Part shown: positions 7,838 to 61,011 of the stretch, in pieces | Layout of the letters: the number at the start of each line of letters is the position of its first letter | How positions within the stretch are numbered: the stretch's first letter is position 1 | Source: Patescibacteria group bacterium | Lineage (GTDB): Bacteria > Patescibacteriota > Patescibacteriia > UBA10025 > JAHIVO01 | Reading direction: 5' to 3' | DNA length: 64,000 nucleotides | Assembly: GCA_041660605.1 (NCBI GenBank) | Contig: JBAZWB010000001.1 | Coordinates: forward strand, 814,503-878,502 | Notes under the pieces: model-generated | The model's database searches: none | What the model was told of the DNA's origin: nothing | The model's input: only the letters and a program-made list of their open reading frames with translations | Program-made: the position numbers and the translations under genes

Positions 7838-7870
7838 AGCCGTTAATACCGGCTGTTTTTATTTTACCAA
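7838..7870 (+). terminator. Intergenic hairpin plus T-tract, a candidate terminator of a short intergenic transcript
   Basis: CAGCCG-gttaata-CGGCTG followed by TTTTTATTTT, about 70 nt upstream of the 7940 gene. Confidence 0.4.
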
Positions 7871-8449: not shown

Positions 8450-8458
8450 TCAGCGTTA

Positions 8459-12088: not shown

Positions 12089-12804
12089 ATATACGTTAGC
12101 ATTGACGACCGGTTAATTAAAGGGAAAATTAACATTTTCAAACCGGCAAAACGGATTGGATCCTGATATCTTTTGCAGGCTCCAGGTTACAGGCTTCATG
12201 CAAAATTAATCTAAATTGTTTAATGTAAGATTAAATATCGGGTACGCAGGGCAATATAGGCCAGGCCTCTCGGATTAAATTCCACATAACATCTTTCTTC
12301 ACTTTTATCTTTATGCTCATTTATATAAATGGATAATGAAAATATACCTGATAATCAATAAATAAAGTTATCCACAGCATATTTAATGTAATAAACCCCC
12401 ATATAAATGCACCTTATTAAAAACATTGACAACAAAAATGTAAAAAAGTAAGATAAATAAACAAATATAAATACGCTTGACAAAAAAACAAAGATATATT
12501 AAGATAAGCCATTCAAATAGCACCTTTAGGCAGGGATCGACGTACCTTATACAATACATTCGGGGGAATGTAAAAAGCCAATATTGAGTTATAAATCGGA
12601 GGAAACTCGCAGAAAACACAAGTAAAAATAAAAAAGTCAGCTAAAATCAATTTAGAAATTCCATTTTTTGAAGCTAATAATTAGCTGATTTTGAACTTCT
12701 CTGTAAGATTTTTAAAATTTGTAACTCGATATTGGCTTTTTGTTTGCAAAAATTACCAACTTTTTAAATATTTATTAAAAAACTAAATTAACCTCCAAAA
12801 ACAT

Positions 12805-15800
12805 ATGAAAATCAATCTTTTACCGAAAAAACGCGAAATCAAAAAAATTACTTACAAAACTCTGCATTTCCTGACTTTATCCGCCCTGGTCTTTAATATG
12901 ACCATGGTCGGCGTTTTTATTACTCCAAAAGCCGCCAATGCCACAGTTACGCCGCCAACTCCGGTAGCCAACCCGGTACTGACACAAAGTTGTGGACTGG
13001 ATATTGGCCTTTTGGTTGATACTTCAGGGAGTATCGATAGCGGTGAAATGACTAAAATGAAGACCGCCTTAACCAGTTTTGCCAATGCATTTGTCGGCAC
13101 ACCGGCAGTTTTCAGCCTTTCGTCATTTGCCAATGAATCATATTTAAGACGAGCATTTTCCAGAACTCCTTCACAAATTGCTGCAGATATCAGTTCAGAC
13201 ATCCCGTCAGATGGCAATGGCTGGACCAACTGGGATTCAGGGTTAGCTCGCAGTTTTGCCACCTTTGATCCCCGACCGGCAAAACCCAATTTAATTGTTA
13301 TCGCGACAGACGGCAGTCCCAACACTTACGGTTATTTCCCAGATCCGACTGTCGAGCCGACTCATAATCCGGCAAATGCTGATGAATTAGCAGCCGGCCT
13401 TAATCATGCGATTGAACGCGCTAATACAATCAAAACTGCCGGAACAAGAGTTGTCGTACTGGGAATTGGCGATGACGAATCTGATCCATCCACGCCTGCG
13501 CAAAAAGTTGATAAGATGAAACAGATCAGCGGACCAAATGTCGCCTACACTACGGCCGATATAACCACTTCCACGGATGTAATCAAAGTTGAAAACTTCG
13601 ATGGCATTGGCGCGGCACTGAGTGAATTCGTCAACCAACTCTGCGGCGGAAAAATTTTAGTGCAAAAACAATTCGACACAAACGGCGATGGCATTGCTGA
13701 AATTACCGGAAGTTCAGCAGATGCAGCGCTTGCTGGTTATACTTTTGATGTTAATGGCTCCCCTTCAAATCCGACCCCTCAAGTTACCGCCAATACCGGT
13801 TCGTTATCGTTTGATGTTTTGAATGGCACCTACAGCGTTACTGAGACTAACTTGCCGGCCAATACGGAAATAGTAAACGGCAAATGCGTGAATGGCACGC
13901 AAAATGTCGGTACCTTCTCATTGGCGACAAAAACCGTTTCAGGATTGACCATGGGAACTGATGATAATATTTCCTGCACATTTCTGAACAAAAATGTATT
14001 TGGAAAACTAAAAGTTATAAAACAAGTTTCTGGCAGCACTGAACCAGTCTCCAGCTGGAGCATGTCAGTAAAAAAAGGCGGCGTGAATGTCGCCGGCAGC
14101 CCGCAACCCGGCAGCACGACTGGCACAGAATATAATCTTGAACCAGGCACTTATACTGTCGGAGAAACCGGACCTGGCGGATACGCGGCTTCCTTCTCAG
14201 CTAGCTGTCCAAGTGGAACAGCAACAGTTACTGCAGGTCAAACAACAACCTGCACAGTGACCAACACCCGCCAAACCGGAACCCTGATTGTGAAGAAAGT
14301 TGTCTCAGGCAGCACTGAACCGTCTGCCAGCTGGTCAATGCATGTGAAACAGGGAGACCAGGAAGTTTCAGGCAGTCCGGCCGCGGGCACTTCAGCCGGC
14401 ACTTCATATACTTTACCGACTGGAACATATAATATTTCTGAAACCGGCGGTCCGAGCAATTACACGGCCAGCTTTTCTGCTGACTGCGTCAATGGTTCAG
14501 CCACCGTTACTGCCGGCCAAACGGTTACCTGCACGGTAACCAACACGCGGGATACCGGGACAATTGAACTGAAAAAAATCTGGTCAGGTCCTGCCGGTCA
14601 GACAACGCTGAACATCGGCACTACCGCCGGTGCGAGCAATGTTGATACACAGCTGACAGGCGCGGCCGGAGCGCCACCGCTGACAACCGGACAGAACACG
14701 GTTAATACCGGCACTTACTATGTTTCAGAAACCGGCGGTTTATCAAACTACAATGCCGCACTCGTCTGCACTGACAATGGCTCACCAATTACTGTTGGCG
14801 TGAATAATTCCGTTAATGTTACCAAGGGCCATGCGGTTGTCTGCACGTTTACCAACACCCGCCAAACAGGGACACTGATTGTGAAGAAAGTTGTCTCCGG
14901 CAGCACTGAACCGTCTGCCAGCTGGTCAATGCATGTCAAACAAAGCGACCAGGAAGTTTCCGGCAGTCCGGCTGCAGGCACTTCCACCGGCACTTCATAT
15001 ACTTTGCCAACTGGAACATATAATGTTTCAGAAACCGGCGGTCCGAGCAATTTCACGGCCAGCTTCTCTGCTGACTGCGTCAATGGCACGGCCACCGTCA
15101 CTGCCGGGCAGACAGTTACCTGCACGGTAACTAATACCCGGGATACCGGCCACATTACATTTAATAAAATTGTCAGCGGCGGCTCTGCCCATGATAATGA
15201 TTTTACCTTTAGTGTTTACGGGCAAGATTACCACGATGGCGATATAGCTACATTACCGACCGGATCATATGCGCTGACAGAATCAGGCCCAATTGGCTAT
15301 ACTTTATCCGCAGCCAGCGGTGTTTGCAGCTTTAGCCCAAGTGCAGATAATAACGTAACTCTGACTGTCACCAAAGATGGCGGTACCTGCAACATCACCA
15401 ATACTCGCGATACCGGCACTATCACCGTGCATAAGTTTTTACAGCTGCCCGGCGAAGATCCAATCTACGATCCGGAAAACTGGTCATGGACATTATCAAG
15501 CCAGCACGGGAGCGTATCAGGCTTGGCTGGTGGAGATACAAAAACCGTACTGACCATCGACGAATATACAGTGGCTGAGGATACTTCAAATTTTCCTGAA
15601 AATAATTTCGCCACCACCTGGACTTGCAATGCTGTCGGTGATGAGAATACTCCGTTTGCTAACGGCACCGGCACTTCATTCAATTTCACCTTAACCCATC
15701 CGGGCCAGAACGTCGTCTGCACTTTCACCAATGTCCGCGAAACAACGGAGATTACCTTTGATAAAGTTGTTGTCGGCGGCAATGAGGCAGACAGTGCCTG

Positions 15801-17835
15801 GGCCTTTGCCATTGACGGCCAGGGAGCATATCACGAAGGCGATGTAGCAAGCTTACCGACAAACGAGGAATTTGATATTACCGAATCTTCACAGTTTGAT
15901 AATTTATACACTTTAACAGGTGCTTCAGGAATTTGCTCACTGGAAGATGGCCATTTAATTCTGAACACGGATTTTAATGAAGATTCCAGGATTCTTCAAA
16001 GTGAACTGCCCACCTGCATTGTGGAAAATACCCGCAATACCGGCAGCTTAACAGCCCATAAATTTATGGATGCTGACGGCAATCTGGAGACAACCGGAGA
16101 TCAAACCCCGGTTGCCGGCTGGACTATCGAACTCTGGCAGGGTGATAATAAAATTGACACCCAAGTAACCGGAGAAGACGGCAGCTACACCTGGAATATT
16201 CTGCCGACTGGAAATTATGTGGTGAAGGAAATATTCGACTCTGCAGATTATCAGGCTCTCACTGCCACTCAATTTCCGGCTGAAGTTACGACTAACGAAA
16301 ATGCAGAGGTAACTTTTTCCAATTTCAAGAAAATTGATTTAACCGCTTCCAAGTTAATGGACGCCGACGGTTCTGCAAAAACCACTCAAGACCGCTCAAC
16401 AGTTGCGGGTTGGACCATTGAACTCTGGCAAGGTGAGAATCTTCTAGGCTCACAGACCACCAATGAAGAGGGCTTTGTAGTTTTTGAAAACCTCGGGCCT
16501 GGTTCATATATAGTCAAAGAAGTATTCGATTCCAGTAAATACACCGCGCTGACTGAAACCGAAATGCAGGTTACGGCCGTCTCAGGTCAGGACCAAACAG
16601 TTTCATTCGTCAACTTTACCAACGAACCGGCCATTACTCTGGTAAAATCTATTACCAATTCCCATCTGATACCCGGAGGATTCATCAATTACCAGCTTTC
16701 CTACACCAATACCGGTAATTTAGACTTAACAAATGTTAAGCTCGTTGATGATTATCCTCAGCAATATCAGACAATAACTGATCCGGGAACTGGCATAGAC
16801 AATGGCGATACTCTTACCTGGATGATCGGCAATCTGGCAATCGGCGAGACTGGTACGGTGACTTATACAACTTCGATAAAATCCGATGTGCCTGGGAATA
16901 CCAATATCATCAACCTGGCCACCATCACATCAGACCAAACCGATCCCCTGACTGCTACAGCTACTGCCCTTGTTCCGCTTCCGCCGGTAGAGGGCCAGCC
17001 AGTGCTGACTATTACCAAGGCTGTAAATAAACTTTTTGTGAATCCCGGCAATCACGCTATCTACACGGTTACTGTTGCCAATTCTGGCGATGCTGCCGCT
17101 ATTAATGCTGAACTCTCAGACCTACTACCCGCTGGATTTACTTTCACAGAATTTGGTACTAGTACCCACACTTGGGCGCTGGGTGATCTGGCAGCCGGAG
17201 AAACTAAAATAATTACATATGAAGTGACTATCGGTACTGGCGTTACTGCCGGCAATTATGAAAACCTGGCCACTGTGCACGCAGATAACCACGGCAGCCT
17301 CCAGGCCAAAGTAAATCTGGAAGTCAGGGTGCCTAAAGTTCTAGCCGAGGAAGCAGAGCCATTGCTGACCATAGAAAAAACAGCGGACAAGGTATTCATC
17401 AACCAGGGAGATACTGTCACCTATACTATCAAGGTTACCAACCAGGGTGATGAGGACGCTGAGGCAGTAGCGCTGAACGTAAAAACTGAGGATTTCTTAC
17501 CGGCTGGATTCACTTTCGCTGACGGTAAAGTTTCCAAAATCTGGGAGCTTGGCGATATCCGCCCAGGCGAGACAAGAGTAATCACCTATACGGCTAAATC
17601 CGACAAGACTTTACTCCCCGGCAATTACGAGAACTTGGCTTCCGCCTGGGCTGATAATCATGACAAGGTTACAGATTCAGTAAAAGTTGAAGTGCGCAAA
17701 ATTAAAGTACTCGGCGAAGCCTTGCCGACTACCGGCGGTTCCCTGATGTTCTATCTGTATCTGCTGGCAATTGGCTTGATAATCGCTTTTGTCGGTTGGG
17801 TGCTGAAACTGACATTATCAACAAGCCGCGAGTAA
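12805..17835 (+). CDS. Giant LPxTG-type surface adhesin: signal peptide, vWA domain, multiple SpaA/prealbumin-like and Cna B-type domains, DUF11 repeats, and a C-terminal LPTTGG sorting signal
   Basis: vWA MIDAS motif DIGLLVDTSGSID...IATDGSPN. Repeated G-x-Y-x-[IV]-[SG]-ETG...TCTVTNTR modules. Cna B-like TAHKFMDADGN...GWTIELWQ...DGSYTWNILPTGNYVVKE, present twice. DUF11 modules include TYTVTVANSGDAAAINAELSDLLPAGFTF. C-terminus KVLGEALPTTGGSLMFYLYLLAIGLIIAFVGWVLK. Confidence 0.8.
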   Translation: MKINLLPKKREIKKITYKTLHFLTLSALVFNMTMVGVFITPKAANATVTPPTPVANPVLTQSCGLDIGLLVDTSGSIDSGEMTKMKTALTSFANAFVGTPAVFSLSSFANESYLRRAFSRTPSQIAADISSDIPSDGNGWTNWDSGLARSFATFDPRPAKPNLIVIATDGSPNTYGYFPDPTVEPTHNPANADELAAGLNHAIERANTIKTAGTRVVVLGIGDDESDPSTPAQKVDKMKQISGPNVAYTTADITTSTDVIKVENFDGIGAALSEFVNQLCGGKILVQKQFDTNGDGIAEITGSSADAALAGYTFDVNGSPSNPTPQVTANTGSLSFDVLNGTYSVTETNLPANTEIVNGKCVNGTQNVGTFSLATKTVSGLTMGTDDNISCTFLNKNVFGKLKVIKQVSGSTEPVSSWSMSVKKGGVNVAGSPQPGSTTGTEYNLEPGTYTVGETGPGGYAASFSASCPSGTATVTAGQTTTCTVTNTRQTGTLIVKKVVSGSTEPSASWSMHVKQGDQEVSGSPAAGTSAGTSYTLPTGTYNISETGGPSNYTASFSADCVNGSATVTAGQTVTCTVTNTRDTGTIELKKIWSGPAGQTTLNIGTTAGASNVDTQLTGAAGAPPLTTGQNTVNTGTYYVSETGGLSNYNAALVCTDNGSPITVGVNNSVNVTKGHAVVCTFTNTRQTGTLIVKKVVSGSTEPSASWSMHVKQSDQEVSGSPAAGTSTGTSYTLPTGTYNVSETGGPSNFTASFSADCVNGTATVTAGQTVTCTVTNTRDTGHITFNKIVSGGSAHDNDFTFSVYGQDYHDGDIATLPTGSYALTESGPIGYTLSAASGVCSFSPSADNNVTLTVTKDGGTCNITNTRDTGTITVHKFLQLPGEDPIYDPENWSWTLSSQHGSVSGLAGGDTKTVLTIDEYTVAEDTSNFPENNFATTWTCNAVGDENTPFANGTGTSFNFTLTHPGQNVVCTFTNVRETTEITFDKVVVGGNEADSAWAFAIDGQGAYHEGDVASLPTNEEFDITESSQFDNLYTLTGASGICSLEDGHLILNTDFNEDSRILQSELPTCIVENTRNTGSLTAHKFMDADGNLETTGDQTPVAGWTIELWQGDNKIDTQVTGEDGSYTWNILPTGNYVVKEIFDSADYQALTATQFPAEVTTNENAEVTFSNFKKIDLTASKLMDADGSAKTTQDRSTVAGWTIELWQGENLLGSQTTNEEGFVVFENLGPGSYIVKEVFDSSKYTALTETEMQVTAVSGQDQTVSFVNFTNEPAITLVKSITNSHLIPGGFINYQLSYTNTGNLDLTNVKLVDDYPQQYQTITDPGTGIDNGDTLTWMIGNLAIGETGTVTYTTSIKSDVPGNTNIINLATITSDQTDPLTATATALVPLPPVEGQPVLTITKAVNKLFVNPGNHAIYTVTVANSGDAAAINAELSDLLPAGFTFTEFGTSTHTWALGDLAAGETKIITYEVTIGTGVTAGNYENLATVHADNHGSLQAKVNLEVRVPKVLAEEAEPLLTIEKTADKVFINQGDTVTYTIKVTNQGDEDAEAVALNVKTEDFLPAGFTFADGKVSKIWELGDIRPGETRVITYTAKSDKTLLPGNYENLASAWADNHDKVTDSVKVEVRKIKVLGEALPTTGGSLMFYLYLLAIGLIIAFVGWVLKLTLSTSRE

Positions 17836-17862
17836 TCAATTTACTTCGGCGAGAGAAATACA

Positions 17863-17897
17863 AAAAGACCCTGCGGTTTTACCCGGGGTCTTTTTGG
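17863..17897. terminator. Rho-independent, near-palindromic terminator of gene 12805..17835; also the 5' boundary of repeat copy A
   Basis: AAAAAGACCC-tgcggttttacccg-GGGTCTTTTT, with an A-tract before and a T-tract after. Confidence 0.75.
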
Positions 17898-18128
17898 TTT
17901 ATCGCTTTGTCACATCGAGCCCCTCGACTATGCTCAGGGTAACCACCTCCCCCTTAGCAAAGGTTATTGATTTAGTCTTGCCTTTATGTGGCCCCTCCTT
18001 AGTAGGAGGGGTGGACACCTCCCCAGTAAACTCAAGTGGTATTACTGGCGTCTTTCTCCCCTCCTTGGAAAGGAGGGGAATTGTCTCAGCACTAGTAATA
18101 GCAGAATGATAGTGATGAGGGGTGGTTA
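17863..18128. repeat. Structured intergenic repeat, copy A: terminator, about 40 bp, then a conserved core of about 185 bp with CCCCTCC/GGAGGGG hairpins
   Basis: About 85-90% identical to 23514..23574 plus 24009..24190. Contains the hairpins CCCCTCC-ttagta-GGAGGGG and CCCCTCCTT-gga-AAGGAGGGG. A 1-nt indel between copies breaks both overlapping ORF frames. Confidence 0.7.
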
Positions 18129-18207
18129 GAATAACTACCACCCCCCCCCTTGACAGACCCCCTAGTATTAGGCTAAGGTATGTGATTAACAAGTGCATAA
18201 CTTTTGA

Positions 18208-18237
18208 TTGACAAATATAGCCTATTTTTACTATAAT
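18208..18237 (+). promoter_or_regulatory. Sigma70-type promoter for the giant gene 18298..23496
   Basis: Perfect consensus: TTGACA (18208-18213), 18-nt spacer, TATAAT (18232-18237). An SD AAGGAG lies at 18283-18288, 9 nt before the ATG at 18298. Confidence 0.55.
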
Positions 18238-18297
18238 TTCAGCACCAAAACAAAAAATTTATCAACCGAAACCCTAATAAATAAGGAGAAAACAACT

Positions 18298-21200
18298 ATG
18301 CATTTAATCAATGCGAAATCAGCCCGACATTACACCCCCTTGGTCGTAGCGGCGGTCTTTGTCGTGGGTTTAGTGAGTATTTTATTTATTCCGAAACCAG
18401 CATTTGCTGCGAGAAATCTAACAAACGCTACCGTTAATGACACAAATGCGGTAACAGTTGGCCCAAATGAATCCATAAATGTTTGGCTTGAGGTAACTAC
18501 AAGTAGAAATTTGAATAATCCAATGGACGAAAATGACTGGAAGTCAACAAGCTATAAAATCGGTAATAACGCGTGGGTATGCTTGGACACACCAGATCAT
18601 ACGGTTTCCGGGACATATTCTGAAACTTTTTCCATCACTGCGCCTGGAACAGCTGGTGTCTATAATTTTAAATTAAAAGCCTGGAAAAATGATGATTGTT
18701 CCCATGGGGCAAGCAATGAAAAAGTTATGAACAACGCAATAACCGTAGCTAATCCTGTTTGCGGTGACGGTGATATTAATCAAGCTTCCGAAGAATGCGA
18801 TGACGGAAATATAACGGGCGGCGATGGCTGTAGCTCTACCTGTACAATCGAACCTACCACCGGCACGCTCCGCCTGGTTAAAAATACTGTTGGTGGAGAT
18901 GATACTTTCTCCATTTTATGGACAACCTGTGATTTCAATGTTCTCCCCGGCTTCTGTATGACCGCGTTCCCAGTTTCGACCAGCTCAATCACGACAAGCG
19001 GTGGCACCAATTACATTGATTATGAAGTTCCTGCAGGCTGGTATACTGCCAGCGAGGACGACTCGACATTACCAGTCGGCTGGGTCCGTACAGATACATC
19101 ATGCGGCGGATTCAGTGGGCTGTACGTGGCCGCAGGCCAAACAACTACCTGCACAATTACTAATACTTACACTCCCCCATGCGGAAATGGGACAGTAGAT
19201 CCAGGTGAACAATGCGATGACTACAATAACCAAAACGGCGATGGGTGCGATGCAAATTGTAACATTGAAATACCCGACCAGGATGCCGACGGCATTTCTG
19301 ATTCTTCTGATAATTGCCCAAAAGTTGCCAATCCAGACCAGGCAGACAGAGATAATGACGGCATAGGAGATTATTGCGATAATTGCCAATCTATATCTAA
19401 TGCCGATCAGGCTGATAACGACGGTGATTATTACGGTAATGTTTGTGATAATTGCCAAAATGTGTACAACCAGACTCAGGCTGATTCTGATAACGATGGC
19501 GTTGGTGATTCCTGCGATAATTGCCCTACAATGACGAATCCAGATCAATCAGAATCTGACGGAGATAAAATCGGTAATACCTGCGATAATTGCCCCCTGG
19601 CATTCAATCCTGATCAGGCTGATGCGAATGGAAACGGAGTTGGTAATGCTTGTGATATTGTTTGCGGTAACTATGTCGTAGAACCCGGCGAACAATGTGA
19701 CGACGGGAATATTCAAAATGGCGATGGCTGCAGCGCCACTTGCACCATAGAACTGCCCGATCAGGATCATGATGGTATTTCTGATGCTTCTGATAATTGT
19801 CGCTATGTAGCCAATCCCGACCAGGTGGATACTGATGCGGACGGTCTCGGTGATTATTGCGACAATTGCAAAATGATTCCAAATGATGACCAGGCAGACA
19901 GTGATGGAGATTTAATAGGAGAAGTATGCGATAACTGCGCGTATACTGCCAATAGTGACCAGTCGGATGATGACGTTGATGGCCTGGGCAATGCCTGCGA
20001 TAACTATAACTGTATTATTACCGGGGCAGAAGATTGCAATTACGGGTATGATAATGATTGCGATGGATTTGTTGATTGTGCCGATAGTGATTGTAACGAT
20101 GATCCGATCTGCCAGCCAATCGTTTGCGGCAACGGTATTACCGAAACCGGAGAGCAATGCGATGACGGTAACACCACAAATATTGATGGCTGTTCTTCAA
20201 CCTGCCAAACAGAAAATGTTTGCACTCCAGGCTGCTACTCTGTCTGGGTCGGAGATCAATACTGTGATGAATCATGCAATAATGCCTCATGCAATTGGGA
20301 TGGCGGCGACTGCGGTCCAACCTGCGGCAATGATATTACCGAAACTCCGGAGGAATGCGACGGAAACTCACAATCGTGTACAACCGCCCAAGGATACGCC
20401 GGTTCGCAAAATTGTAATATGCCAATTAGAGATGCCTTCACAATAACATCTGCTGTACAAAGTTATTGCACCTGGAACCCCTGCATTACCCAGGAATTCT
20501 GTGGTGATAATACTATAAACGGTACGGAACAATGCGACGATGGTAATACAGTTGATGGCGACGGTTGCAGTGCCGCTTGCACTACAGAAGCACCAACTTG
20601 CCCGAATCTATTCTTCTCTGAATACATTGAAGGCAACGGTAATAATAAAGCACTGGAAATTTATAACCCGACCGCCAGCGGCGTAAATCTGAACGGTTAT
20701 GCTGTGGTGATTTATTCCAATGGCTCAACCACCCCCAGCCAAACAATTGCGCTTTCAAATACCACTTTGGGAACGGGTAATGTATATGTACTTGCTCATC
20801 CTGCTGCGGATGCGGGTATAACAAGCCACGCTAACCAACTTTCTGGCAATATAACTTTTAATGGAGACGATGCAGTTATTCTGAAAAATGGGTCAACAAT
20901 AATTGATGCTATCGGCCGAATCGGCTATCAACCAGGCTCTGGTGAATGGGGAACCGGCCTTACCAGCACAAAAGATAATACTCTGGTCAGAAAATGCGGA
21001 ATCAGTTGTGGTGATATGAATGGATCTGATTCATTCAATCCTGCTACTGAATGGGACGGCTATGCAATCAATACATATTCCTACTTAGGCTCGCATACTC
21101 TGGCATGCCCTGTCTGTGGTGACGATATATTAAACGGTGATACTGAACAGTGCGACGATGGGAATCTGGTTGATGGCGACGGTTGCTCAGCAAAATGTAC

Positions 21201-23496
21201 CTGGGAACCAGCCACCATTAATGCACAAAAGATTGTTTGCAATGATGAATCTTTACTGCCAAATTGGGGAACGGGTGGCCCAGATATCACCTCTTCAACA
21301 GCCGCTGACTATGTTGCCAGCCATGAGGGTTGCCGCTTAGTTGACTGGACTTTTCAATGGAGACCAGATGGAACAAATCCATACAACCCGGGAGATAATA
21401 CTGGCGAGGCAAGTGGTGCATGGTCAACTCCATTCAGCGCTTCAGCTGACATTTCCACAGATATCTCAAAAGTCTGGCTGCGCGAAGTGTGGAATTCTGA
21501 ATATATTCCCTTTACCTATGAATCGGCAGATGGAAATTTAAATAATGTAAGTGCAGAATTTTACTGCAACGCAGATGTGTTAAATTACGATAACTTAGAA
21601 TGGATAAATACCCAGCCTGGCCAGGAATATTACTGCGTAGGATTTAATGCACTCGCGGCTCGCTGCGGCGATGGCACTGTAAATCAGGAATCCGAACAAT
21701 GCGATGGTGATGCGGATAAAGCATGCACCACGCCTGATGGCTACGCTGGCACCCAAACCTGCAATATGCCTATCAAAGGCGACTTCGTAGCTGTTTTTAG
21801 GATAGAAAATTCCTGCACCTGGAACCCTTGCGATCCGACTGAGTTCTGCGGCGACGGGATCGTGAACGGCACTGAAGAGTGTGACGGAGATGCCGGCATT
21901 ACCGGCGAAGAGTTCTGCTCAGACTCATGCACCATTGAAACAACCAGCTTTGAACTCACAAAATCAGTCCTGGTAAATGGAGAACTGTCAAGCACCGCCA
22001 ATGAAGGTGATACGCTCACCTACACTATCACTGCAAAAAATACCGGCACTACTGACGAGTCTAATCTGGTCATTAAAGACACTACGCCGACCAATACGAC
22101 ATTGGTTCCTGGAGAACTAGGATATCAGGTCAATGGCGATGAATTAACCTGGGACGCATTCAACCTCGACGCAGGAGACACCCACGAAGTTACCTTCAAT
22201 GTGACCGTCAACGGCAGCTTACCAGAAGGAACCACGGAAATCACCAATGAAGCTACGCTTTGGCAGTTTGAGGGAGCCAACTTAGAGGTTGCATCCCCTG
22301 TCAGCTTTTTGCATAAGGTTTTGGGAATCAAAACTGCAAACGCACAAGCTGCTCCGTTGGTCTTGAGAGCTACTTCAAATTTAGTCCTGACCACTGTCGT
22401 AATTGGAGTCAAACCGTTTTGCGGCGACAATATGGTTAACCAGGAATTCGAGCAGTGCGACGGCACCGACGGTGTTGGAGAGCACCAGCAATGCAATGCC
22501 GATTGCCGTCTGGAAAATCTTCCTTATTGCGGCGATGGGATTAAGAACGGTACTGAGGAATGCGATACTACTGACGGAATTACCGGCGACCAGACCTGCT
22601 CAGAGACCTGCACCATCGTTGAGCCTGAACCAACGCTGAATCCAGTACTCTCAATCATTAAGTCAGTAGATAAAACAACTACCAATCCCGGCACAACGCT
22701 GGTTTACACAGTTACTGTTTCCAATTCCGGCAGTGTTGAGGCTACGGACGTAGTAATGACTGACGCTTTACCGGCCGGATTTACATTTGCTAATGCCGAC
22801 GGTAGTAATTCCGGTGATACGAATAAGACCTGGAATTTAGGCGACCTGGCTGCTGGTGGTGATACTACTGTTACTTATAACGTGTTGGTAGATTCAAATG
22901 CCGGATCTAGAATATATACAAACACTGCTACGGCTACTGCTAGTAACTTCACTGGTTCAGTCACTGCCAAGGCAGACGTTAACGTAATTATAACGAAAGT
23001 GCTCGGAGAAACTGCTTCGCAACTGACCATTACCAAAAAAGCTGATAAAGCCTTCACCAACCCGGCAGGCAGAATCACCTACACAGTTACCGTTACGAAT
23101 AATGGCGACGCGCCGGCTATGAACGCGGTACTGGTAGATAAATTACCCGCAGGATTGATCTATGCAGGTACCAAGGACCAAACTACGGCTACTTGGAAGC
23201 TTGGCGATATCGCACCGACAGAAACAATCACAAAGACATATCAAGCTACGGTGTTACCAAAAACAGAACCAGGTAAATACGTTAATACCGCTTCGGTTTC
23301 GGCTGACGATGTAGCCAAGATATCAGCTAATGCCACAGTAGAGGTGCGGAAAGTGGCAGTCCTGGGCGCGGAAACAGACGAAGATGCGGCTTTACCGGTA
23401 ACCGGTATGAACATTATTCAGTATCTCTACATTATCGGTGCCGGACTAGTGGTGATCTTCTCCGGTTGGGCTCTGAGACTGACGATTTCCAGATAA
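18298..23496 (+). CDS. Giant mosaic LPxTG-type surface protein: signal peptide, Myxococcus cysteine-rich repeats, thrombospondin type-3 Ca-binding repeats, an LNR-like repeat, a lamin-tail domain, DUF11 repeats, and a C-terminal LPVTG sorting signal
   Basis: Start MHLINAKSA...AFA (signal peptide); the ORF track's upstream extension from 18208 overlaps the promoter. Cysteine-rich repeats such as CGDGxINQxSEECDDGNxxxGDGCSxTC, about 12 copies. TSP3: DQDADGISDSSDNCPKVANPDQADRDNDGIGDYCDNC and similar. LNR-like: CYSVWVGDQYCDESCNNASCNWDGGDCG. Lamin-tail domain: FFSEYIEGNGNNKALEIYNPT...VILKNGSTIIDAIGRIG. DUF11 modules include LVYTVTVSNSGSVEATDVVMTDALPAGFTF. C-terminus LPVTGMNIIQYLYIIGAGLVVIFSGWALRL. 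Confidence 0.8.
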   Translation: MHLINAKSARHYTPLVVAAVFVVGLVSILFIPKPAFAARNLTNATVNDTNAVTVGPNESINVWLEVTTSRNLNNPMDENDWKSTSYKIGNNAWVCLDTPDHTVSGTYSETFSITAPGTAGVYNFKLKAWKNDDCSHGASNEKVMNNAITVANPVCGDGDINQASEECDDGNITGGDGCSSTCTIEPTTGTLRLVKNTVGGDDTFSILWTTCDFNVLPGFCMTAFPVSTSSITTSGGTNYIDYEVPAGWYTASEDDSTLPVGWVRTDTSCGGFSGLYVAAGQTTTCTITNTYTPPCGNGTVDPGEQCDDYNNQNGDGCDANCNIEIPDQDADGISDSSDNCPKVANPDQADRDNDGIGDYCDNCQSISNADQADNDGDYYGNVCDNCQNVYNQTQADSDNDGVGDSCDNCPTMTNPDQSESDGDKIGNTCDNCPLAFNPDQADANGNGVGNACDIVCGNYVVEPGEQCDDGNIQNGDGCSATCTIELPDQDHDGISDASDNCRYVANPDQVDTDADGLGDYCDNCKMIPNDDQADSDGDLIGEVCDNCAYTANSDQSDDDVDGLGNACDNYNCIITGAEDCNYGYDNDCDGFVDCADSDCNDDPICQPIVCGNGITETGEQCDDGNTTNIDGCSSTCQTENVCTPGCYSVWVGDQYCDESCNNASCNWDGGDCGPTCGNDITETPEECDGNSQSCTTAQGYAGSQNCNMPIRDAFTITSAVQSYCTWNPCITQEFCGDNTINGTEQCDDGNTVDGDGCSAACTTEAPTCPNLFFSEYIEGNGNNKALEIYNPTASGVNLNGYAVVIYSNGSTTPSQTIALSNTTLGTGNVYVLAHPAADAGITSHANQLSGNITFNGDDAVILKNGSTIIDAIGRIGYQPGSGEWGTGLTSTKDNTLVRKCGISCGDMNGSDSFNPATEWDGYAINTYSYLGSHTLACPVCGDDILNGDTEQCDDGNLVDGDGCSAKCTWEPATINAQKIVCNDESLLPNWGTGGPDITSSTAADYVASHEGCRLVDWTFQWRPDGTNPYNPGDNTGEASGAWSTPFSASADISTDISKVWLREVWNSEYIPFTYESADGNLNNVSAEFYCNADVLNYDNLEWINTQPGQEYYCVGFNALAARCGDGTVNQESEQCDGDADKACTTPDGYAGTQTCNMPIKGDFVAVFRIENSCTWNPCDPTEFCGDGIVNGTEECDGDAGITGEEFCSDSCTIETTSFELTKSVLVNGELSSTANEGDTLTYTITAKNTGTTDESNLVIKDTTPTNTTLVPGELGYQVNGDELTWDAFNLDAGDTHEVTFNVTVNGSLPEGTTEITNEATLWQFEGANLEVASPVSFLHKVLGIKTANAQAAPLVLRATSNLVLTTVVIGVKPFCGDNMVNQEFEQCDGTDGVGEHQQCNADCRLENLPYCGDGIKNGTEECDTTDGITGDQTCSETCTIVEPEPTLNPVLSIIKSVDKTTTNPGTTLVYTVTVSNSGSVEATDVVMTDALPAGFTFANADGSNSGDTNKTWNLGDLAAGGDTTVTYNVLVDSNAGSRIYTNTATATASNFTGSVTAKADVNVIITKVLGETASQLTITKKADKAFTNPAGRITYTVTVTNNGDAPAMNAVLVDKLPAGLIYAGTKDQTTATWKLGDIAPTETITKTYQATVLPKTEPGKYVNTASVSADDVAKISANATVEVRKVAVLGAETDEDAALPVTGMNIIQYLYIIGAGLVVIFSGWALRLTISR

Positions 23497-23513
23497 TTTC
23501 AGAAATTTCAATA

Positions 23514-23549
23514 CAAAAAGACCCTGCGGTTTTACCGAGGGTCTTTTTG
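23514..23549. terminator. Rho-independent terminator of gene 18298..23496, nearly identical to the terminator at 17863
   Basis: AAAAAGACCC-tgcggttttaccga-GGGTCTTTTT. Confidence 0.75.
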
Positions 23550-23626
23550 GTTTATCCGCTCTGTCACATCGACCGAAGTGGAGATGTCTCTAAGATAATT
23601 ACATACTACCTTTTTGGTATTTAAAA

Positions 23627-23956
23627 TTATCTTAAATATTCTAATATCTTTTCAATTACCCCTTCAATATTATTATAAACATCACTATTCATAAATCTTA
23701 AAAAACGTATGTTGAATTGTTCAATGTACTCCTGCCGTACCCGGTCATAAATCCGCGCCTCTTTATTGAAATGCGTTGGTCCGTCAACTTCTATGGCTAG
23801 TTTAATTTTTGGACAGTAAAAATCAATCACATATGGACCGACGCTGTACTGCCGACGGAATTTATAGCCGGACAGTCGTTTATCTTTAAGATAACGCCAA
23901 AGCACCACCTCAGCCCTTGGTGCTAAATTCCTTAAAGTCTGACGTCTTTTTTTCAT
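23627..23956 (-). CDS. DUF559 domain protein (Vsr-like very-short-patch-repair endonuclease fold)
   Basis: 109-aa core MKKRRQTL...YVIDFYCPKIKLAIEVDGPTHF...RFLRF, typical of DUF559. The ORF track extends it to 24199 across the repeat; the extension is not conserved as protein, so the start is placed at the internal ATG (23954-23956). Confidence 0.6.
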   Translation of the reverse strand: MKKRRQTLRNLAPRAEVVLWRYLKDKRLSGYKFRRQYSVGPYVIDFYCPKIKLAIEVDGPTHFNKEARIYDRVRQEYIEQFNIRFLRFMNSDVYNNIEGVIEKILEYLR

Positions 23957-24342
23957 TTTATGTTTGTTGAAGACAACTGTCATAGGTGCTGGTGGAGCTA
24001 CCTCCCTCTTAGCAAAGGTTATTGATTTAATCTTGCCTTTATGCGGCCCCTCCTTGGCAGGAGGGGTGGACTCCTCCCCAAATAGCATTGATGGTATTGC
24101 CGGCGTCTTTCTCCCCTCCTTGTTCAAGGAGGGGAAATGCCTCAGTGCCAGCAATAGCAGAATGATAGTGGTGAGGGGTGGTGTATTTAAGTGGCACAAC
24201 GCATAAAAACCTTCCGCGGATTGCCGGGGAAGGCTAACGTTTCAATAATATCACTTTTCAGCACCAAGTCAACTCAACCTCTGTAAATTTAAAAAACTAC
24301 ATTGACAGGTATCCCCTTTTTCCGCTAAACTAATACAATTTA

Positions 24343-24372
24343 TTGACAAACGGAGAAATAATTGGCTATAAT
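24343..24372 (+). promoter_or_regulatory. Sigma70-type promoter for the giant gene 24433..27024
   Basis: Perfect consensus: TTGACA (24343-24348), 18-nt spacer, TATAAT (24367-24372). Confidence 0.5.
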
Positions 24373-24432
24373 TGGTAGAGAAATAAAAACCTTTTATATA
24401 TTATTTTACAAATTATTAATCAAACAACGCAT

Positions 24433-27024
24433 ATGAAAATTAGTGTAAAAATGCCAAAAAGTCTTCGCATTTTAGTGCCGATAATGATTTTTAGCATGGC
24501 ACTAATATTTGCTCCAACTCTGGCAAAGGCAGCCACAACATACACAGTTGACGCTGACTTTGACCAAGGCTCACTTATTAATGTAGTGCATACGCCCAGC
24601 GATCAGCTCCAACTGACTGACCAGGTCGAAGCTTTTAACTTCATTTGGGTAGCCAATTCGGGCGAAGGCACAATTGTTAAAATTAATACGGATACCGGCG
24701 CTATCGTCGGCGAGTACCGTACTTCACCGAATGGCACCTATGGCAACCCCTCCCGCACCACCGTCGACAAAGATGGCAGTGTCTGGGTAGGAAACCGCCA
24801 AGCGGTCAGCGGTAACAATGCCGCTATTACCCACGTCGGCTTACTCGAGAACGGTCAGTGCGAAGACCGCAACGGTAACGGCATAATTGATACTTCGACC
24901 GGCTTGAATGATGTAAAGGACTGGACTGATGAGAGCGGAACTCGCGGGGTCGCTACTGCCCAGGACGAATGTATTGTCCATTTCACTCCAATTGAATCCT
25001 ATGATGCCAGGCATATTTCAGTCGACTCGGCAAATAACATCTGGGTCAGCGGTATCAGTAACCGCACTTTCTTCTATATTGTTGGCGGGAAATATAATAT
25101 ACCGAATTCCGGCACTATCGTACGGACTGAAACAGGCATCGGCTATGGCGGCTATGGCGGCTTAATTTCAGGTGATGTCATTTGGTCAGCCAATCCATTA
25201 CTTCGCTGGGATACCAACTACCCTCTATCAGATGCCGCACACCACACAACTTACAGCCATGACAGCTACGGACTCTGCGAAGACAGCCAGGGAAACGTCT
25301 GGAATACTTCCCTCTCTGGCGGTGTAATTAGGAAATTCAATCCGGCTGGTGATTTGCTAGGCACCTATTCTTACGGCGCTTCCAATGCCCAAGGCTGTGT
25401 CGTTGACGGCAATGACGACGTCTGGGTAGCTCACTCGCTGTGGGGTAACAGCGTTGGCCATTTATTAAACGACGGCACGCTCGTTGGTGTTATACCGGTC
25501 GGCAATGGTCCGACTGGAGTAGCGGTAGACCACAACGGCAAAATTTGGGTCACCCATTATTCTTCCCCCTATACAGTCAAAAGGATAGACCCAACGCTTG
25601 GTGATATCGGCGGTGGCGGTGCCACGATTGGTGCAGTCGATTATACTTCAGTTGATCTTGGTGGCAGCCTCTACAACTATTCTGATATGACTGGCAGCAC
25701 TCTTTCCGGAAAAGCCGAGAGTGGCACATGGACTGTTGTTTATGATTCCCAGGCTACCGGTCCTATCGGTGATAATATTTCCTGGACTGCTGATGTGCCG
25801 AATGACGGCAATTTAACCGTCTCCATAGCGCTCAGTGACGACGGTGCCACCTATGGTATTCCGGCAACTGTAACGAACGGCCAGGATATTTCAGCGTTAA
25901 GCGCCCGATATTATAAAATCACGGTCAGCTTTGAACGAGGCGGCCGGGGTGTTAGCCCGATACTTTATGACCTCTCCCTTTCTTCACCTTACTGCGGTGA
26001 CGGAATAGCGAATCAGGAAACTGAAGAGTGCGACGGCACCGACGGCGTTGGCGGGCACCAGCAATGCACCCGTAACTGTACACTAGAAAACCTCCCTTAC
26101 TGCGGTGACGGCATTAAAAATGCCAATGAACAATGCGACGGATCTGACGGAGTAAACGCCGGCGAAGTTTGCACTGCGGAGTGTACAGTAACTGCAGTTG
26201 ATGCCAACGGACCAATCCTGACAATTACCAAAACAGTGCGGGATTCTAAGGTGGCTCCAACCGGAACCGCCACTTACACGGTTACGGTTACCAATACCGG
26301 TGCAGCCACGGCGGAAAACGTCAAACTGCATGATATACTTCCTATAAATTTCACTTTTGCTGATAATGGCATCGGCACCCACGACTGGGATCTAGGCGAT
26401 TTAACAGCCAATGAATCAACTACGGTTAGCTATGTTGTAAATATCAGCGAGAATGCCAACCAAGGTACTTATGAAAACATTGCTGTTGCCTCAGCCGACA
26501 ATTATGGAAATGTTTCCACCAAAGTGCCGGTACAGATAGAGTTTAAGACGATTGGGAAAAAAGCACCGTCATTAACCATCACCAAGACAGCAGATAAAAG
26601 CCTGGCTAATCCCGCCAGTACGGTCGGATATACTGTTACTATTGCCAATAATGGCGATGCTCCGGCGTTTAATGTTGTTTTGAAGGACACACTGCCAGCC
26701 GGTTTTGTTTTTGACGATGGCGCTACAACGAGAACCTGGACATTGGGCGATCTGGCACCGACAGAGAAAAAAATTATCACCTACTTTGCCAAAGTTGATG
26801 CCAGTGCTGCTGCGGCTATCTATGATAATGTCGCCGTTGTTACAGCGGATAATGTAGATGATATTTCTGCCGTGGCAACGGTGGAAGTCCGCACCGTACA
26901 GGTATTAGGCGCGGAAACTGATCCGGAAGCAGTATTACCGGTTACCGGCGGTGGATTCGAAATAACTTTATTAGTTGCATTTACATTAATCAGTGCCGGG
27001 GCTTTATTGATCGTTAAGCGCTAA
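24433..27024 (+). CDS. Large LPxTG-type surface protein: signal peptide, beta-propeller-like repeats, Myxococcus cysteine-rich repeats, DUF11 repeats, and a C-terminal LPVTGG sorting signal
   Basis: Propeller-like repeats DGSVWVGN, NNIWVSG, GNVWNTS, DDVWVAHS, GKIWVTH. Cysteine-rich repeats CGDGIANQETEECDGTDGVGGHQQCTRNC and CGDGIKNANEQCDGSDG...CTAEC. DUF11 modules TATYTVTVTNTGAATAENVKLHDILPINFTF and TVGYTVTIANNGDAPAFNVVLKDTLPAGFVF. C-terminus QVLGAETDPEAVLPVTGGGFEITLLVAFTLISAGALLIVKR. Confidence 0.8.
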   Translation: MKISVKMPKSLRILVPIMIFSMALIFAPTLAKAATTYTVDADFDQGSLINVVHTPSDQLQLTDQVEAFNFIWVANSGEGTIVKINTDTGAIVGEYRTSPNGTYGNPSRTTVDKDGSVWVGNRQAVSGNNAAITHVGLLENGQCEDRNGNGIIDTSTGLNDVKDWTDESGTRGVATAQDECIVHFTPIESYDARHISVDSANNIWVSGISNRTFFYIVGGKYNIPNSGTIVRTETGIGYGGYGGLISGDVIWSANPLLRWDTNYPLSDAAHHTTYSHDSYGLCEDSQGNVWNTSLSGGVIRKFNPAGDLLGTYSYGASNAQGCVVDGNDDVWVAHSLWGNSVGHLLNDGTLVGVIPVGNGPTGVAVDHNGKIWVTHYSSPYTVKRIDPTLGDIGGGGATIGAVDYTSVDLGGSLYNYSDMTGSTLSGKAESGTWTVVYDSQATGPIGDNISWTADVPNDGNLTVSIALSDDGATYGIPATVTNGQDISALSARYYKITVSFERGGRGVSPILYDLSLSSPYCGDGIANQETEECDGTDGVGGHQQCTRNCTLENLPYCGDGIKNANEQCDGSDGVNAGEVCTAECTVTAVDANGPILTITKTVRDSKVAPTGTATYTVTVTNTGAATAENVKLHDILPINFTFADNGIGTHDWDLGDLTANESTTVSYVVNISENANQGTYENIAVASADNYGNVSTKVPVQIEFKTIGKKAPSLTITKTADKSLANPASTVGYTVTIANNGDAPAFNVVLKDTLPAGFVFDDGATTRTWTLGDLAPTEKKIITYFAKVDASAAAAIYDNVAVVTADNVDDISAVATVEVRTVQVLGAETDPEAVLPVTGGGFEITLLVAFTLISAGALLIVKR

Positions 27025-46330: not shown

Positions 46331-47052
46331 TTGACTGATTTTAATATTGGCCCGTATAAATCATAATCCAGGCTGATCTCCAGTTTTGGCTTGAATTTCC
46401 GCGGCCGGCTGGCGAACCTGACAAACGGTATTTCGCTGATAATCACCAAGGGCGTCCTCTCCCTGCCCTCGCCCATGGCGACCATCCCGGCCGCGGCCAG
46501 ACTGTCTGCCACATCAACTGTTGAAACTTTGAACTTACGATTGAATAAATCCTTGGTGCCCCGATAATCATTCACCGGCTGAAACCCCCAGTAACCAACC
46601 GCCACGCCCATTACACCGCGTCGCAAAGGTACCGTATGGCTGTCGGAAATAATTACGCCAACATTTTTAATCCGATAGGTTCTTCGTAAAAACTGCCAAA
46701 TTTCTTTTGCTGCTGCCTGCGGTTTTTCCGGCCATAAAATATAATATTCTCCGGCGTTGGATTCATCTATCCCGGCAGTTGGGATTAAAATATTATTCTT
46801 GATTGTCAAAACCGCATAACCGCCGGGCGATAATCGCCTTGGCAAAAACAAATCTGCTTCTTTTTCAATTAACCTATCTTTATTCGTTACTTTTGATTTT
46901 AAAATACATCTGCCCTGGTGCAGGCTGACTACTTTTGAAGCTACCATTAAGACTGAATTATTCGGTAGACTTTTAATGCTTTTCTTGATCACTTTAAAAA
47001 GGTCGTCCTGCGGCGGCCTAAGAAGCTTTGTTTTTACTGCTTTAATTCGCAT
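46315..47052 (-). CDS. CofE-like gamma-glutamyl ligase family protein (F420-0:gamma-glutamyl ligase fold)
   Basis: MVASKVVSLHQGR, IPTAGIDESNA, GVIISDSHTVPLRRG and MGVAVGYWG resemble CofE-family blocks. Confidence 0.6.
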   Translation of the reverse strand: MRIKAVKTKLLRPPQDDLFKVIKKSIKSLPNNSVLMVASKVVSLHQGRCILKSKVTNKDRLIEKEADLFLPRRLSPGGYAVLTIKNNILIPTAGIDESNAGEYYILWPEKPQAAAKEIWQFLRRTYRIKNVGVIISDSHTVPLRRGVMGVAVGYWGFQPVNDYRGTKDLFNRKFKVSTVDVADSLAAAGMVAMGEGRERTPLVIISEIPFVRFASRPRKFKPKLEISLDYDLYGPILKSVKWRKK

Positions 47053-47226
47053 ACTTGGCTTAATTCTACCATTTCAAATCGTTGTGGAAAAGCCTATTGA
47101 CTAATATATTCATTTATTGTAATATCAACGGTTAATTATAAAAAAAGCTTTATTTCCGCGCCAAACTGTGTTATTATTTCCCTTAGTCAACGGGGATTAG
47201 ACAATTACCCCGACCGCCTTGACTGC

Positions 47227-47300
47227 CGGGGTATGGCGCAGTTGGCTAGCGCGCATCGTTCGGGACGATGAGGCCGCCGGTTCAAGTCCGGCTACCCCGA
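47227..47300 (+). tRNA. tRNA-Pro (anticodon CGG)
   Basis: Cloverleaf built by hand: acceptor CGGGGTA/TACCCCG; D-arm GCGC-AGTTGGCTA-GCGC; anticodon arm CATCG-TTCGGGA-CGATG (U33, C34 G35 G36, G37); T-arm GCCGG-TTCAAGT-CCGGC; discriminator A. CCA is not encoded. Confidence 0.85.
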
Positions 47301-47597
47301 TAGTCAAGGCGGCCCACAAAGCTTGCGCGTCCACCTCTAGTGGAAGGTCCCGGCGTACCCCGTCGTATGACGGGGACCCCGACCAATTTAATTTAATGTT
47401 ATGAAAAAAATATTGCGCGTAATAACTTTATGCCCAGTGTTTTCTTCAGAAACCCTCTTCAAACCCTAAACCTTTTAACCTGAAGGAGCCCACATGCTCT
47501 TTATGAGTCCTCACTCTCCACCGCGTTAATTGATCGCAGTTTGAACATTCACGTTCACCCCTTTCTCACTAAAATTGTGTAAAAACGCGGAGGGAAA

Positions 47598-47831
47598 ATG
47601 AATCGTCGTACTGCAAGTACCCAAAGCAACCTGTCAACATTTCTGGCTACACGCGCCGGAAAAGACATTAAAGGCCTGGAATTCACCGCTCATCTTAAAG
47701 ATGGTAAACAACGAGTAAGCGTCGTCAAGGCTAACAGAAGAGACCATGGGTTTTCCAGCGTTACCGTGAAACCCACTCACGGCTCCGGTCAAGAAATTAC
47801 TCTTGACCCAGCGACAATCGTCTCCTACTAG
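47598..47831 (+). CDS. Hypothetical small basic protein (77 aa)
   Basis: Strong SD GGAGGG 5 nt before the ATG. Preceded by an 11-codon uORF at 47494..47529. Followed by a terminator. Confidence 0.4.
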   Translation: MNRRTASTQSNLSTFLATRAGKDIKGLEFTAHLKDGKQRVSVVKANRRDHGFSSVTVKPTHGSGQEITLDPATIVSY

Positions 47832-60684: not shown

Positions 60685-60792
60685 ATTTTATACCTTAATT
60701 TAGGCATATTTATTATATCTGCCTTTATAAAATATGTCTATTAAAAATCTCACAGGTAATTAAAACGCGCTGCGGTAAATTATTTTCCACAA

Positions 60793-60810
60793 AGCTGCGA
60801 GACCTGGACT
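60793..60810. repeat. 18-nt direct repeat of the tRNA-Gln 3' end (T-arm, acceptor and discriminator)
   Basis: ctgcgagacctggactcg at 60793-60810 is identical to 60900-60917. Confidence 0.6.
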
Positions 60811-60899
60811 CGCCCTGTACCACAAGGGTACAGGGCGCCATGAACCGAACTTTGTTCTGGTTCATGGCGAACTAATAATAACGAAAATTCCCTGCAAAT

Positions 60900-60970
60900 C
60901 TGCGAGACCTGGACTCGAACCAGGATTAGCGGATTCAGAGTCCGCCGTCCTACCATTAGACGATCTCGCA
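60900..60970 (-). tRNA. tRNA-Gln (anticodon CUG)
   Basis: Reverse complement folds as: acceptor TGCGAGA/TCTCGCA; D-arm GTCT-AATGGTA-GGAC; anticodon arm GCGGA-CTCTGAA-TCCGC (U33, C34 U35 G36, A37); T-arm CCTGG-TTCGAGT-CCAGG; discriminator G. Confidence 0.8.
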
Positions 60971-60982
60971 GATTTGCAGGGA

Positions 60983-61011
60983 ATTATAAATATTCTTTAA
61001 CTTATAAACAA
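60983..61011 (-). promoter_or_regulatory. Candidate promoter for tRNA-Gln
   Basis: On the minus strand: TTGTTT, 17-nt spacer, TATAAT. The -10 box ends about 12 nt upstream of the tRNA 5' end. Confidence 0.4.

Follow-up and report, generated by a model that had tools for sequence, protein, structure and literature searches.

We analyzed a 64-kb stretch of DNA (64,000 nt; hereafter, the window) from an ultra-small bacterium of the Patescibacteria, known as a metagenome-assembled genome, in which ARAGORN and Rfam identify two tRNA genes, tRNA-Pro(CGG) and tRNA-Gln(CTG), both situated between inverted repeats. An earlier interpretation of the same DNA (the sequence-only reading) had reported a perfect 11-bp inverted repeat around tRNA-Pro and the same phenomenon at tRNA-Gln, and both were recovered here. 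The tRNA genes were called with ARAGORN and the Rfam family RF00005 (gathering score 29); the Rfam scan of the window yielded nothing above threshold except these two genes.

The tRNA-Pro(CGG) gene occupies positions 47227-47300 of the forward strand (74 nt including the discriminator A73; 65.1 bits with RF00005). CCA is not encoded, the 3' end reading ...CCCCGA and then TAG. The 5' arm of the repeat is the leader from -15 to -1 (GACCGCCTTGACTGC, 47212-47226, forward strand), while the 3' arm is comprised of the discriminator and 14 nt of the trailer (ATAGTCAAGGCGGCC, 47300-47314, forward strand). Within the arms, the perfect 11-mer CCGCCTTGACT (47214-47224) is fully complementary to AGTCAAGGCGG (47302-47312), and each of the two has a single site in the window at zero mismatches. 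The sequence-only reading placed bulges of two and one nucleotides between this helix and the acceptor stem. These bulges vanish, because the discriminator A73 had been left out of the count: there are two nucleotides on each side, and the helix continues the acceptor stem in register, through a C-1/A73 mismatch and a G-2·U wobble into 11 Watson-Crick pairs. At its outer end, these are followed by one mismatch and then by a G-C pair at -15.

The tRNA-Gln(CTG) gene lies on the reverse strand at 60900-60970, with the discriminator G73 at 60900 and, again, no encoded CCA (ARAGORN, Rfam). Its 5' arm, the leader from -15 to -1 (AATTCCCTGCAAATC on the reverse strand, 60971-60985), and its 3' arm, G73 and 14 nt of the trailer (GATTTGCAGGGAATT on the reverse strand, 60886-60900), form a perfect 15-bp inverted repeat, longer than that of tRNA-Pro, and the helix is unbroken from C-1:G73 through 15 pairs. 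In-register pairing at both tRNAs agrees with the earlier proposal that the repeats lengthen the acceptor helix. Folding, also proposed earlier, predicts coaxial helices of 20-22 bp at both genes, with z = -4.7 for the Pro region and z = -9.4 for the Gln region relative to shuffled sequences.

Among the 25 longest of the 43 short-range inverted repeats in the window, those at tRNA-Pro and tRNA-Gln rank first and fourth by arm length, and their complementarity of 85% and 90% exceeds the 75% and 81% of the repeats ranked second and third. No other short-range inverted repeats in the window are as prominent.

For comparison, about 1.2 Mb of sequence was gathered from relatives via the gene adjoining tRNA-Pro and via dnaX, which adjoins tRNA-Gln. 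The resulting data set comprises 64 distinct tRNAs of the Candidate Phyla Radiation (CPR; Patescibacteria), and the loci of the relatives are designated by L-numbers (L006, L090, etc.). As a strict in-register measure, the leader position -k was compared with position 72+k for k from 1 to 15, and Watson-Crick pairs were counted; the null distribution was obtained by randomly pairing leaders and trailers of different loci (3916 comparisons; mean 4.2, standard deviation 1.8, maximum 11). The count was 15/15 for tRNA-Gln and 12/15 for tRNA-Pro of the window, 13/15 and 12/15 for tRNA-Gln in L009 and L240, respectively, 11/15 for tRNA-Pro(CGG) in L022, and 10/15 for tRNA-Pro(GGG) in L090. In total, 6 of the 64 distinct tRNAs had at least 10 in-register pairs, compared with 9 of the 3916 null comparisons, while the other 58 had at most 9. 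Arm-bearing genes are thus found for Gln (three lineages), Pro(CGG) (two lineages), and Pro(GGG) (one lineage). A chance origin of the repeats in the window is excluded. Only the strict in-register measure sets apart a distinct class of tRNAs; a duplex-energy measure with loose offsets yielded no significant general enrichment once the window was left out.

Five of the six cases are clean, and when these pre-tRNAs were aligned, 96.4% of the 110 pair cells were standard pairs. Sliding the partner by one to three columns reduced this fraction to 38-46%, and 21 of the 22 pairs had changes on both sides; as the five sequences had been picked for having the helix, this test demonstrates a specific register rather than prevalence. 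All helices begin at or beside N-1:N73, and in the five clean cases they end at about 13-15 bp, or 20-22 bp when the 7-bp acceptor stem is included. Except between the related Pro arms of the window and L090, the arms have unrelated sequences. That complementary arms recur in relatives with different sequences suggests a structural role or a recurrent mechanism.

The positions inside the five clean helices that are not Watson-Crick pairs include eight G·U pairs as compared to one or two A·C, an excess that fits a constraint on the tRNA-sense RNA strand. Although the DNA repeats in L009, L240, and L022 are imperfect, the predicted RNA helices stay continuous, because the deviations are G·U pairs. 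In addition, of the five arm positions that distinguish L022 from L024, three carry changes that keep or improve pairing.

We tentatively interpret the arms as a transcribed leader-trailer duplex, similar to an rRNA processing stem and cut by an RNase III-type enzyme. The transcript would contain both arms, one as the 5' leader of the tRNA and the other as the 3' trailer, and these would pair in register with the 7-bp acceptor stem, yielding a coaxial duplex of approximately 20-22 bp that closes the pre-tRNA. Such a duplex would hide both tRNA ends from RNase P and the 3' endonuclease. Since both ends would be hidden, we infer that both strands are cleaved within the extension by a double-strand endonuclease of the RNase III class. 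The ends would then be finished by RNase P, an enzyme of the RNase Z type and, as no CCA is encoded, a CCA-adding enzyme. The presence of both arms in the transcript, the formation of the helix, the nuclease that cuts it and the order of these steps are all part of the proposed scheme. The arms themselves probably arise and are renewed by DNA-level duplications, which are frequent at the tRNA loci of this lineage.

Several features are consistent with this interpretation. The flanks are complementary and enclose the mature RNA, and in all five clean cases the stem spans approximately two helical turns (about 20 bp or more), as in a processing stem. Leader pairing that lengthens the acceptor stem is known to inhibit bacterial RNase P (PMC9433436), and the pre-tRNAs of Aquifex avoid stable extensions of the acceptor stem (PMC12439589); therefore, a 15-bp extension would need an extra double-strand-specific step. 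The earlier view that this arrangement is untypical of bacterial leaders and trailers is supported. With due reservation, a leader-trailer duplex seems to best fit the register, the narrow length range, the tolerance of G·U pairs and the recurrence with different sequences.

For the arms to be part of the precursor, transcription has to start upstream of them. Two tandem promoter-like motifs are found upstream of tRNA-Pro(CGG), at 47097-47177 in the window and at homologous places in L006, L008, L015-L017, and L022; their role as promoters is assigned from the consensus match. The distal site, TTGACT-17 nt-TAATAT (47097-47125, forward strand), is preceded by GTGGAAAA and matches the consensus at 9 of 12 positions. 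The corresponding motif GTGGAAAAnnnnATTGACn-17-TAnnAT is found at the same place upstream of tRNA-Pro(CGG) in L008, L015, L016, and L017. The proximal motif, GCTTTATTT-N11-TGTGTTATTAT (47147-47177, forward strand), includes the -10 hexamer TATTAT at 47172-47177, and in the aligned upstream regions its consensus, CCTTTATTT-N12-TGnTAnAAT, is kept across nine tRNA-Pro(CGG) loci. In most relatives, the proximal motif ends 10-13 nt before tRNA-Pro, which implies leaders of approximately 4 nt. In the window and in L022, the distance is 49 and 43 nt, respectively, so that the Pro 5' arm, located 30-50 nt downstream of the conserved motif, would be transcribed. At tRNA-Gln of L240, a near-consensus TTGACA-17-TAGAGT puts the start about 5 nt upstream of the arm.

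Other observations weigh against the proposed processing duplex. All three arm-bearing Gln genes have a -10-like hexamer (TATAAT, TATTAT, or TATCAT) at exactly -18 to -13, where it overlaps the 5' arm; in the window, the overlap takes in the last 3 nt of the perfect TATAAT hexamer. If this hexamer is the promoter, the transcript would begin near -6 and include no more than about 6-7 bp of the extension. In L240, however, the promoter situated further upstream is the stronger one. Several -10-like hexamers compete in the AT-rich leaders, so the sequence leaves the placement of the promoter ambiguous. Further, with L090 included, the ratio of G·U to A·C becomes 9:5 and is not significant. The helix is absent in 11 of the 13 tRNA-Pro(CGG) lineages and in 4 of the 7 tRNA-Gln lineages, and neither gene has it in the closest relatives found (L006/L093). 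As most orthologous genes have no helix, the duplex cannot be an essential pathway. The perfect arms in the window suggest a recent origin. Finally, the Pro arms of the window and of the distant L090 are 83% identical, which is not expected from pure structural selection.

The alternative that survives best, which we consider possible although doubtful, is that the arms are a neutral by-product of tandem, nested and inverted duplications of DNA at tRNA loci, and that the helix has no RNA function. This could happen by template switching across the quasi-palindrome of the acceptor stem. Alternatively, the locus could have recombined with an inverted copy whose 3' acceptor strand runs on into the reverse complement of the leader. 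In both cases, the leader would be copied in inverted orientation and in register behind position 72/73. The perfection of the arms in the window and the patchy phylogenetic distribution of the helix are in line with such an origin, as is the fact that the Gln arms run into the -10-like hexamer, and hence into DNA that is perhaps not transcribed. The Pro 3' arm of the window starts with TAGTCAA, identical to the ancestral leader end, and fragments of tRNA genes are strewn over the loci.

In particular, an imperfect third copy of the Pro 3' arm, AGTCAACGGGG as compared to AGTCAAGGCGG, is located at 47185-47195 on the forward strand. It consists of the ancestral leader end and the first 5 nt of an older tRNA-Pro, and could pair with the Pro 5' arm as an alternative hairpin; the leader of tRNA-Pro alone folds at -12.5 kcal/mol (z = -3.1). 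The remnant of this older gene, comprised of CGGGGAT, TAGACAAT, and TACCCCGA (47191-47213, forward strand), retains both acceptor strands, 5' and 3', but has lost its interior; TACCCCGA matches the 3' end of tRNA-Pro at all eight positions. The remnant begins 13 nt after the conserved -10 hexamer, which is the tRNA start site in the relatives. Downstream of the intact gene, a 3'-end remnant, AGGTCCCGGCGTACCCCG (47345-47362, forward strand), carries the 3' strands of the T-stem and of the acceptor stem: CCGGC(G)TACCCCG at 47350-47362 matches tRNA-Pro at 47288-47299, while the four bases before 47350 were assigned by eye. Another remnant on this side is made of CGGGG/ACCCCGACC. Analogous 3'-end copies are found downstream in L006, L242, and L024.

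Two further details of the sequence-only reading are accounted for by these fragments. The 7-bp GC hairpin CCCCGTC-gtat-GACGGGG is indeed present (47358-47375, forward strand), is made of acceptor-strand fragments, and has no adjacent U-tract. The 9-mer ACCCCGACC does occur on both sides of the gene: the first copy begins at 47207 as reported (47207-47215), while the second is at 47376-47384 on the forward strand, rather than at 47369. The two copies are direct repeats around the segment containing both arms, the tRNA and the remnant. A view of the hairpin and the 9-mers as parts of one designed structure is not supported; they are built of duplicated acceptor-strand fragments of tRNA-Pro.

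Such duplications are common in the data set. A perfect 14-nt copy of the own 3' end within 300 nt downstream was found for 5 of the 64 tRNAs, compared with 2 of 3604 in the null, which also fits a neutral origin of the arms. The perfect copies are located 90-160 nt downstream in L015, L240, L036, L048, and the window (60790-60812), and belong to Pro, Ser, Trp, and Gln genes. In L048, the duplication takes in the trailer and its terminator. Diverged 3'-end copies were seen in L006, L242, L024, and L090.

The copy in the window is the last part of a segment downstream of tRNA-Gln (60790-60869, reverse strand), in which two related hairpins with the stems CGCCATGAACC and CGCCCTGTACC are followed by a 23-nt duplicate (60790-60812) of the tRNA-Gln 3' end with 5 nt of the trailer. 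The sequence after the duplicate pairs with the leader at 11 of 15 positions (counted by hand). The trailer hairpins (CGCCNTGNACC) are similar to the Pro arm. A nearly identical stem, GCCATGCACC, occupies the same position downstream of tRNA-Pro in L242, which hints at a small family of hairpin elements tied to tRNA 3' ends. We also considered palindrome families of the repetitive extragenic palindrome or bacterial interspersed mosaic element type (REP/BIME), and rejected them: CGCCNTGNACC occurs only at the tRNA-Gln trailer, its counts are at the chance level, and the inverted repeats of the window contain no dispersed palindrome family.

Along with these copies, some tRNA genes are nested in one another. 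At L090:17359-17551, an intact arm-bearing tRNA-Pro(GGG) is located inside an older tRNA-Pro split at position 25/26; the acceptor halves of the outer gene still pair perfectly, while its anticodon stem has decayed, and the region folds as nested helices (z = -4.2). At L024:9600-9860 (reverse strand), an L022-type tRNA-Pro is split into a 5' part (CGGGG...) and a 3' part (ACAAGTCCCGGATCCCCGA), with an intact tRNA-Pro(CGG) in between; the outer gene keeps its leader and trailer arms (13/15 pairs). The inner hairpin of L024, ATGAAGGCGG-catc-CCGCCTTCAT, has the CCGCCTT/AAGGCGG motif in common with the Pro arms of the window.

A conserved GC-rich element of approximately 175 nt is found directly downstream of tRNA-Pro(CGG) in L015 (110-283, reverse strand), where it is in tandem, and in L240 (9614-9787, reverse strand); L022 (1-103) has a partial copy, and the window has none. 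The element ends in a copy of the tRNA T-stem, acceptor 3' end and discriminator, and has no match in Rfam. Between two sequences, 10 of the 50 predicted pairs show compensatory double changes and none are broken. The element is possibly a structured RNA not described before, or a mini-element.

The nesting of tRNA in tRNA seen in L090 and L024 also fits a neutral origin of the arms. Still, errors of copying should spread the arm lengths broadly, whereas these fall within 13-15 bp in five independent cases. Neither is a helix without function expected to have more G·U than A·C pairs, or to remain continuous at the RNA level over the imperfect DNA repeats of L009, L240, and L022. Moreover, we know of no other bacteria whose tRNA genes carry in-register extensions this long. 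The processing duplex, a neutral origin, and the cassette and terminator ideas considered below are compatible with one another; the arms may arise by duplication and then stay because the duplex is useful.

The sequence-only reading also suggested that the tRNAs are carried in small palindromic cassettes. In this case, a mobile or recombining element with terminal inverted repeats, CCGCCTTGNNTGC-tRNA-NAGNCAAGGC in terms of sequence, would insert into or replace a tRNA gene of the same identity, so that the host would retain a working copy. The idea gains from the position of the armed tRNA-Pro(GGG) within the older gene in L090 and from the arms kept around the interrupted tRNA in L024. Likewise, the flanks of tRNA-Pro in the window and L090 are alike (15 of 18 nt of the leader and 9 of 11 nt of the trailer are identical), while the tRNA bodies are only about 50% identical, and in the window and L022 the armed tRNA follows an insertion relative to the ancestral spacing between the promoter and the tRNA. 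Structurally, the units have the terminal inverted repeats of a miniature inverted-repeat transposable element (MITE).

On the other hand, we found no target-site duplications and no extra copies: flanking direct repeats are not enriched over the null, with 7-nt ones in L006 and L240, and each arm is present once in 64 kb, the only part of the genome covered. No transposase or integrase gene was found within the window. Since the arms are unrelated except for the Pro pair of the window and L090, no single enzyme could recognize all of them by sequence. Two scans of viral contigs for the Pro arm produced more than 120 and 18 matches, all of which were chance-like and none beside a tRNA; the viral matches with CAAGGC 70-100 nt downstream of the Pro-arm match are coding sequence. 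While the cassette idea has partial support from the nesting and the shared Pro arms, we consider it improbable that the arms are ends of a mobile unit.

Quite improbable, too, is that the extended helix serves as the stem of an intrinsic terminator or seals the ends against exonucleases, with no dedicated double-strand cut. A U-rich stretch, UUCGUUAUUAUU, is indeed found 3' of the Gln arm; the sequence right after the Gln arm is UUUUCGUUAUUAUU in the window and UUAUCCU in L009 and L240. In some armless relatives, a T-run directly follows the discriminator (G, then TTTTTT, in L096 Gln; A, then TTTTT, in L243 Pro), which suggests that the tRNA acceptor helix itself may serve as a terminator hairpin in this clade. 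These runs of five to six T are located at L096:11716-11725 and, in L243, just downstream of tRNA-Pro at 9869-9941. However, the Pro arm of the window has no U-tract (GGCGG is followed by CCCACAAAGC), and nothing terminator-like was called by the scan of 46950-47650. Nor was the U-rich stretch after the Gln arm called, and the U-tracts in L009, L240, and L022 are weak. We know of no documented terminator in which the stem closes a structured loop of 57-60 nt. Finally, a substrate of the bulge-helix-bulge type, which splicing-type endonucleases cut in the pre-tRNAs and rRNA processing stems of archaea, had been evoked solely by the impression of bulges beside the acceptor stem, and its probability is close to nil, because the 3-nt bulge, 4-bp helix and 3-nt bulge are absent from every case, the coaxial helix having one C·A mismatch at tRNA-Pro and being regular at tRNA-Gln.

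The gene neighborhood in the window is that of ordinary housekeeping, with dnaX, truB, guaA, purA, an F420-ligase-like gene, ribosomal protein genes, and genes for large DUF11 surface proteins. No RNase gene, including RNase III, was found within the 64 kb. Downstream of tRNA-Pro, a 77-aa open reading frame (ORF; 47598-47831) without a Pfam match is homologous to a 65-aa ORF, two copies of which surround tRNA-Pro in the closest relative (L007:864-1859). At 8459-27024, four large secreted or anchored proteins of 1209, 1676, 1762, and 863 aa are encoded in a row. The C-terminal DUF11-type (TIGR01451-like) repeats of the 1676- and 1762-aa proteins are 44% identical to each other, and the 863-aa protein has Pfam DUF11/CARDB domains; a search using the DUF11 domain found no paralogues of these proteins in the same genome. 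Two more long imperfect inverted repeats were observed at 7742-7838 and 8452-8505, one with 32-nt arms of 75% complementarity, the other with 26-nt arms of 81% complementarity and a 2-nt loop; the latter is situated where two ORFs meet.

Our literature search yielded no account of inverted repeats flanking tRNA genes in the CPR. If the processing duplex is real, in-register extensions of 13-15 bp would imply either that maturation includes an additional, as yet undescribed step or that the precursor is regulated, because even a few base pairs of extension are known to hinder or misdirect RNase P. In the host phylum, little work has been done on RNA processing, and the reduced genomes are devoid of many RNases. 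A broader and more doubtful proposal is that this CPR clade matures a subset of its stand-alone tRNAs (Gln and Pro) via an rRNA-style duplex of approximately 22 bp, coaxial with the acceptor stem and opened by a double-strand-specific nuclease before RNase P and RNase Z act, with the stems being made and exchanged by tRNA-in-tRNA nesting, whereby whole tRNA genes would enter or displace resident ones and bring their arms along. Even if the arms are neutral scars, they record unusually active rearrangement at CPR tRNA loci, seen as nested tRNAs, duplicated 3' ends and small structured elements. This matters for tRNA annotation, for the interpretation of attachment (att) sites, and for the upkeep of a minimal tRNA set in tiny genomes.

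Compared with known systems, the loci resemble integrative elements that target tRNA genes via att sites in that the tRNA 3' end is directly repeated 60-160 nt further downstream, over 23 nt at tRNA-Gln and as fragments at tRNA-Pro. Unlike those elements, the inserts are only 60-175 nt long and gene-free, with no integrase nearby in the window, and att integration does not account for inverted repeats around a whole tRNA. In modules of the MALAT1/mascRNA type, contact between leader and trailer at a tRNA-like fold affects 3'-end maturation (PMC8457004); these belong to a eukaryotic long non-coding RNA of other geometry and provide only an analogy. In the leader-trailer bulge-helix-bulge structures of archaea and algae (permuted and split tRNAs, rRNA stems), the leader and trailer also pair beside the acceptor stem, while the helices described here have no bulges, the host is a bacterium, and there is no evidence for a splicing endonuclease. 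Closer are the known extensions of the bacterial acceptor stem (leader:RCCA and N-1:N73 pairing), which likewise start at N-1:N73 and in register. However, these are 1-4 bp long, and their study has concerned the inhibition or misdirection of RNase P (PMC9433436; PMC12439589), as compared to 13-15 bp and a non-CCA trailer here. The RNase III stems of bacterial 16S and 23S rRNA differ in that here a single stand-alone tRNA is enclosed, the duplex continues the acceptor stem coaxially, and the arrangement, known from sequence, is confined to some lineages and some tRNAs. Like those stems, the arms are 5' and 3' flanks that pair with each other into a long duplex of about two helical turns enclosing the mature RNA.

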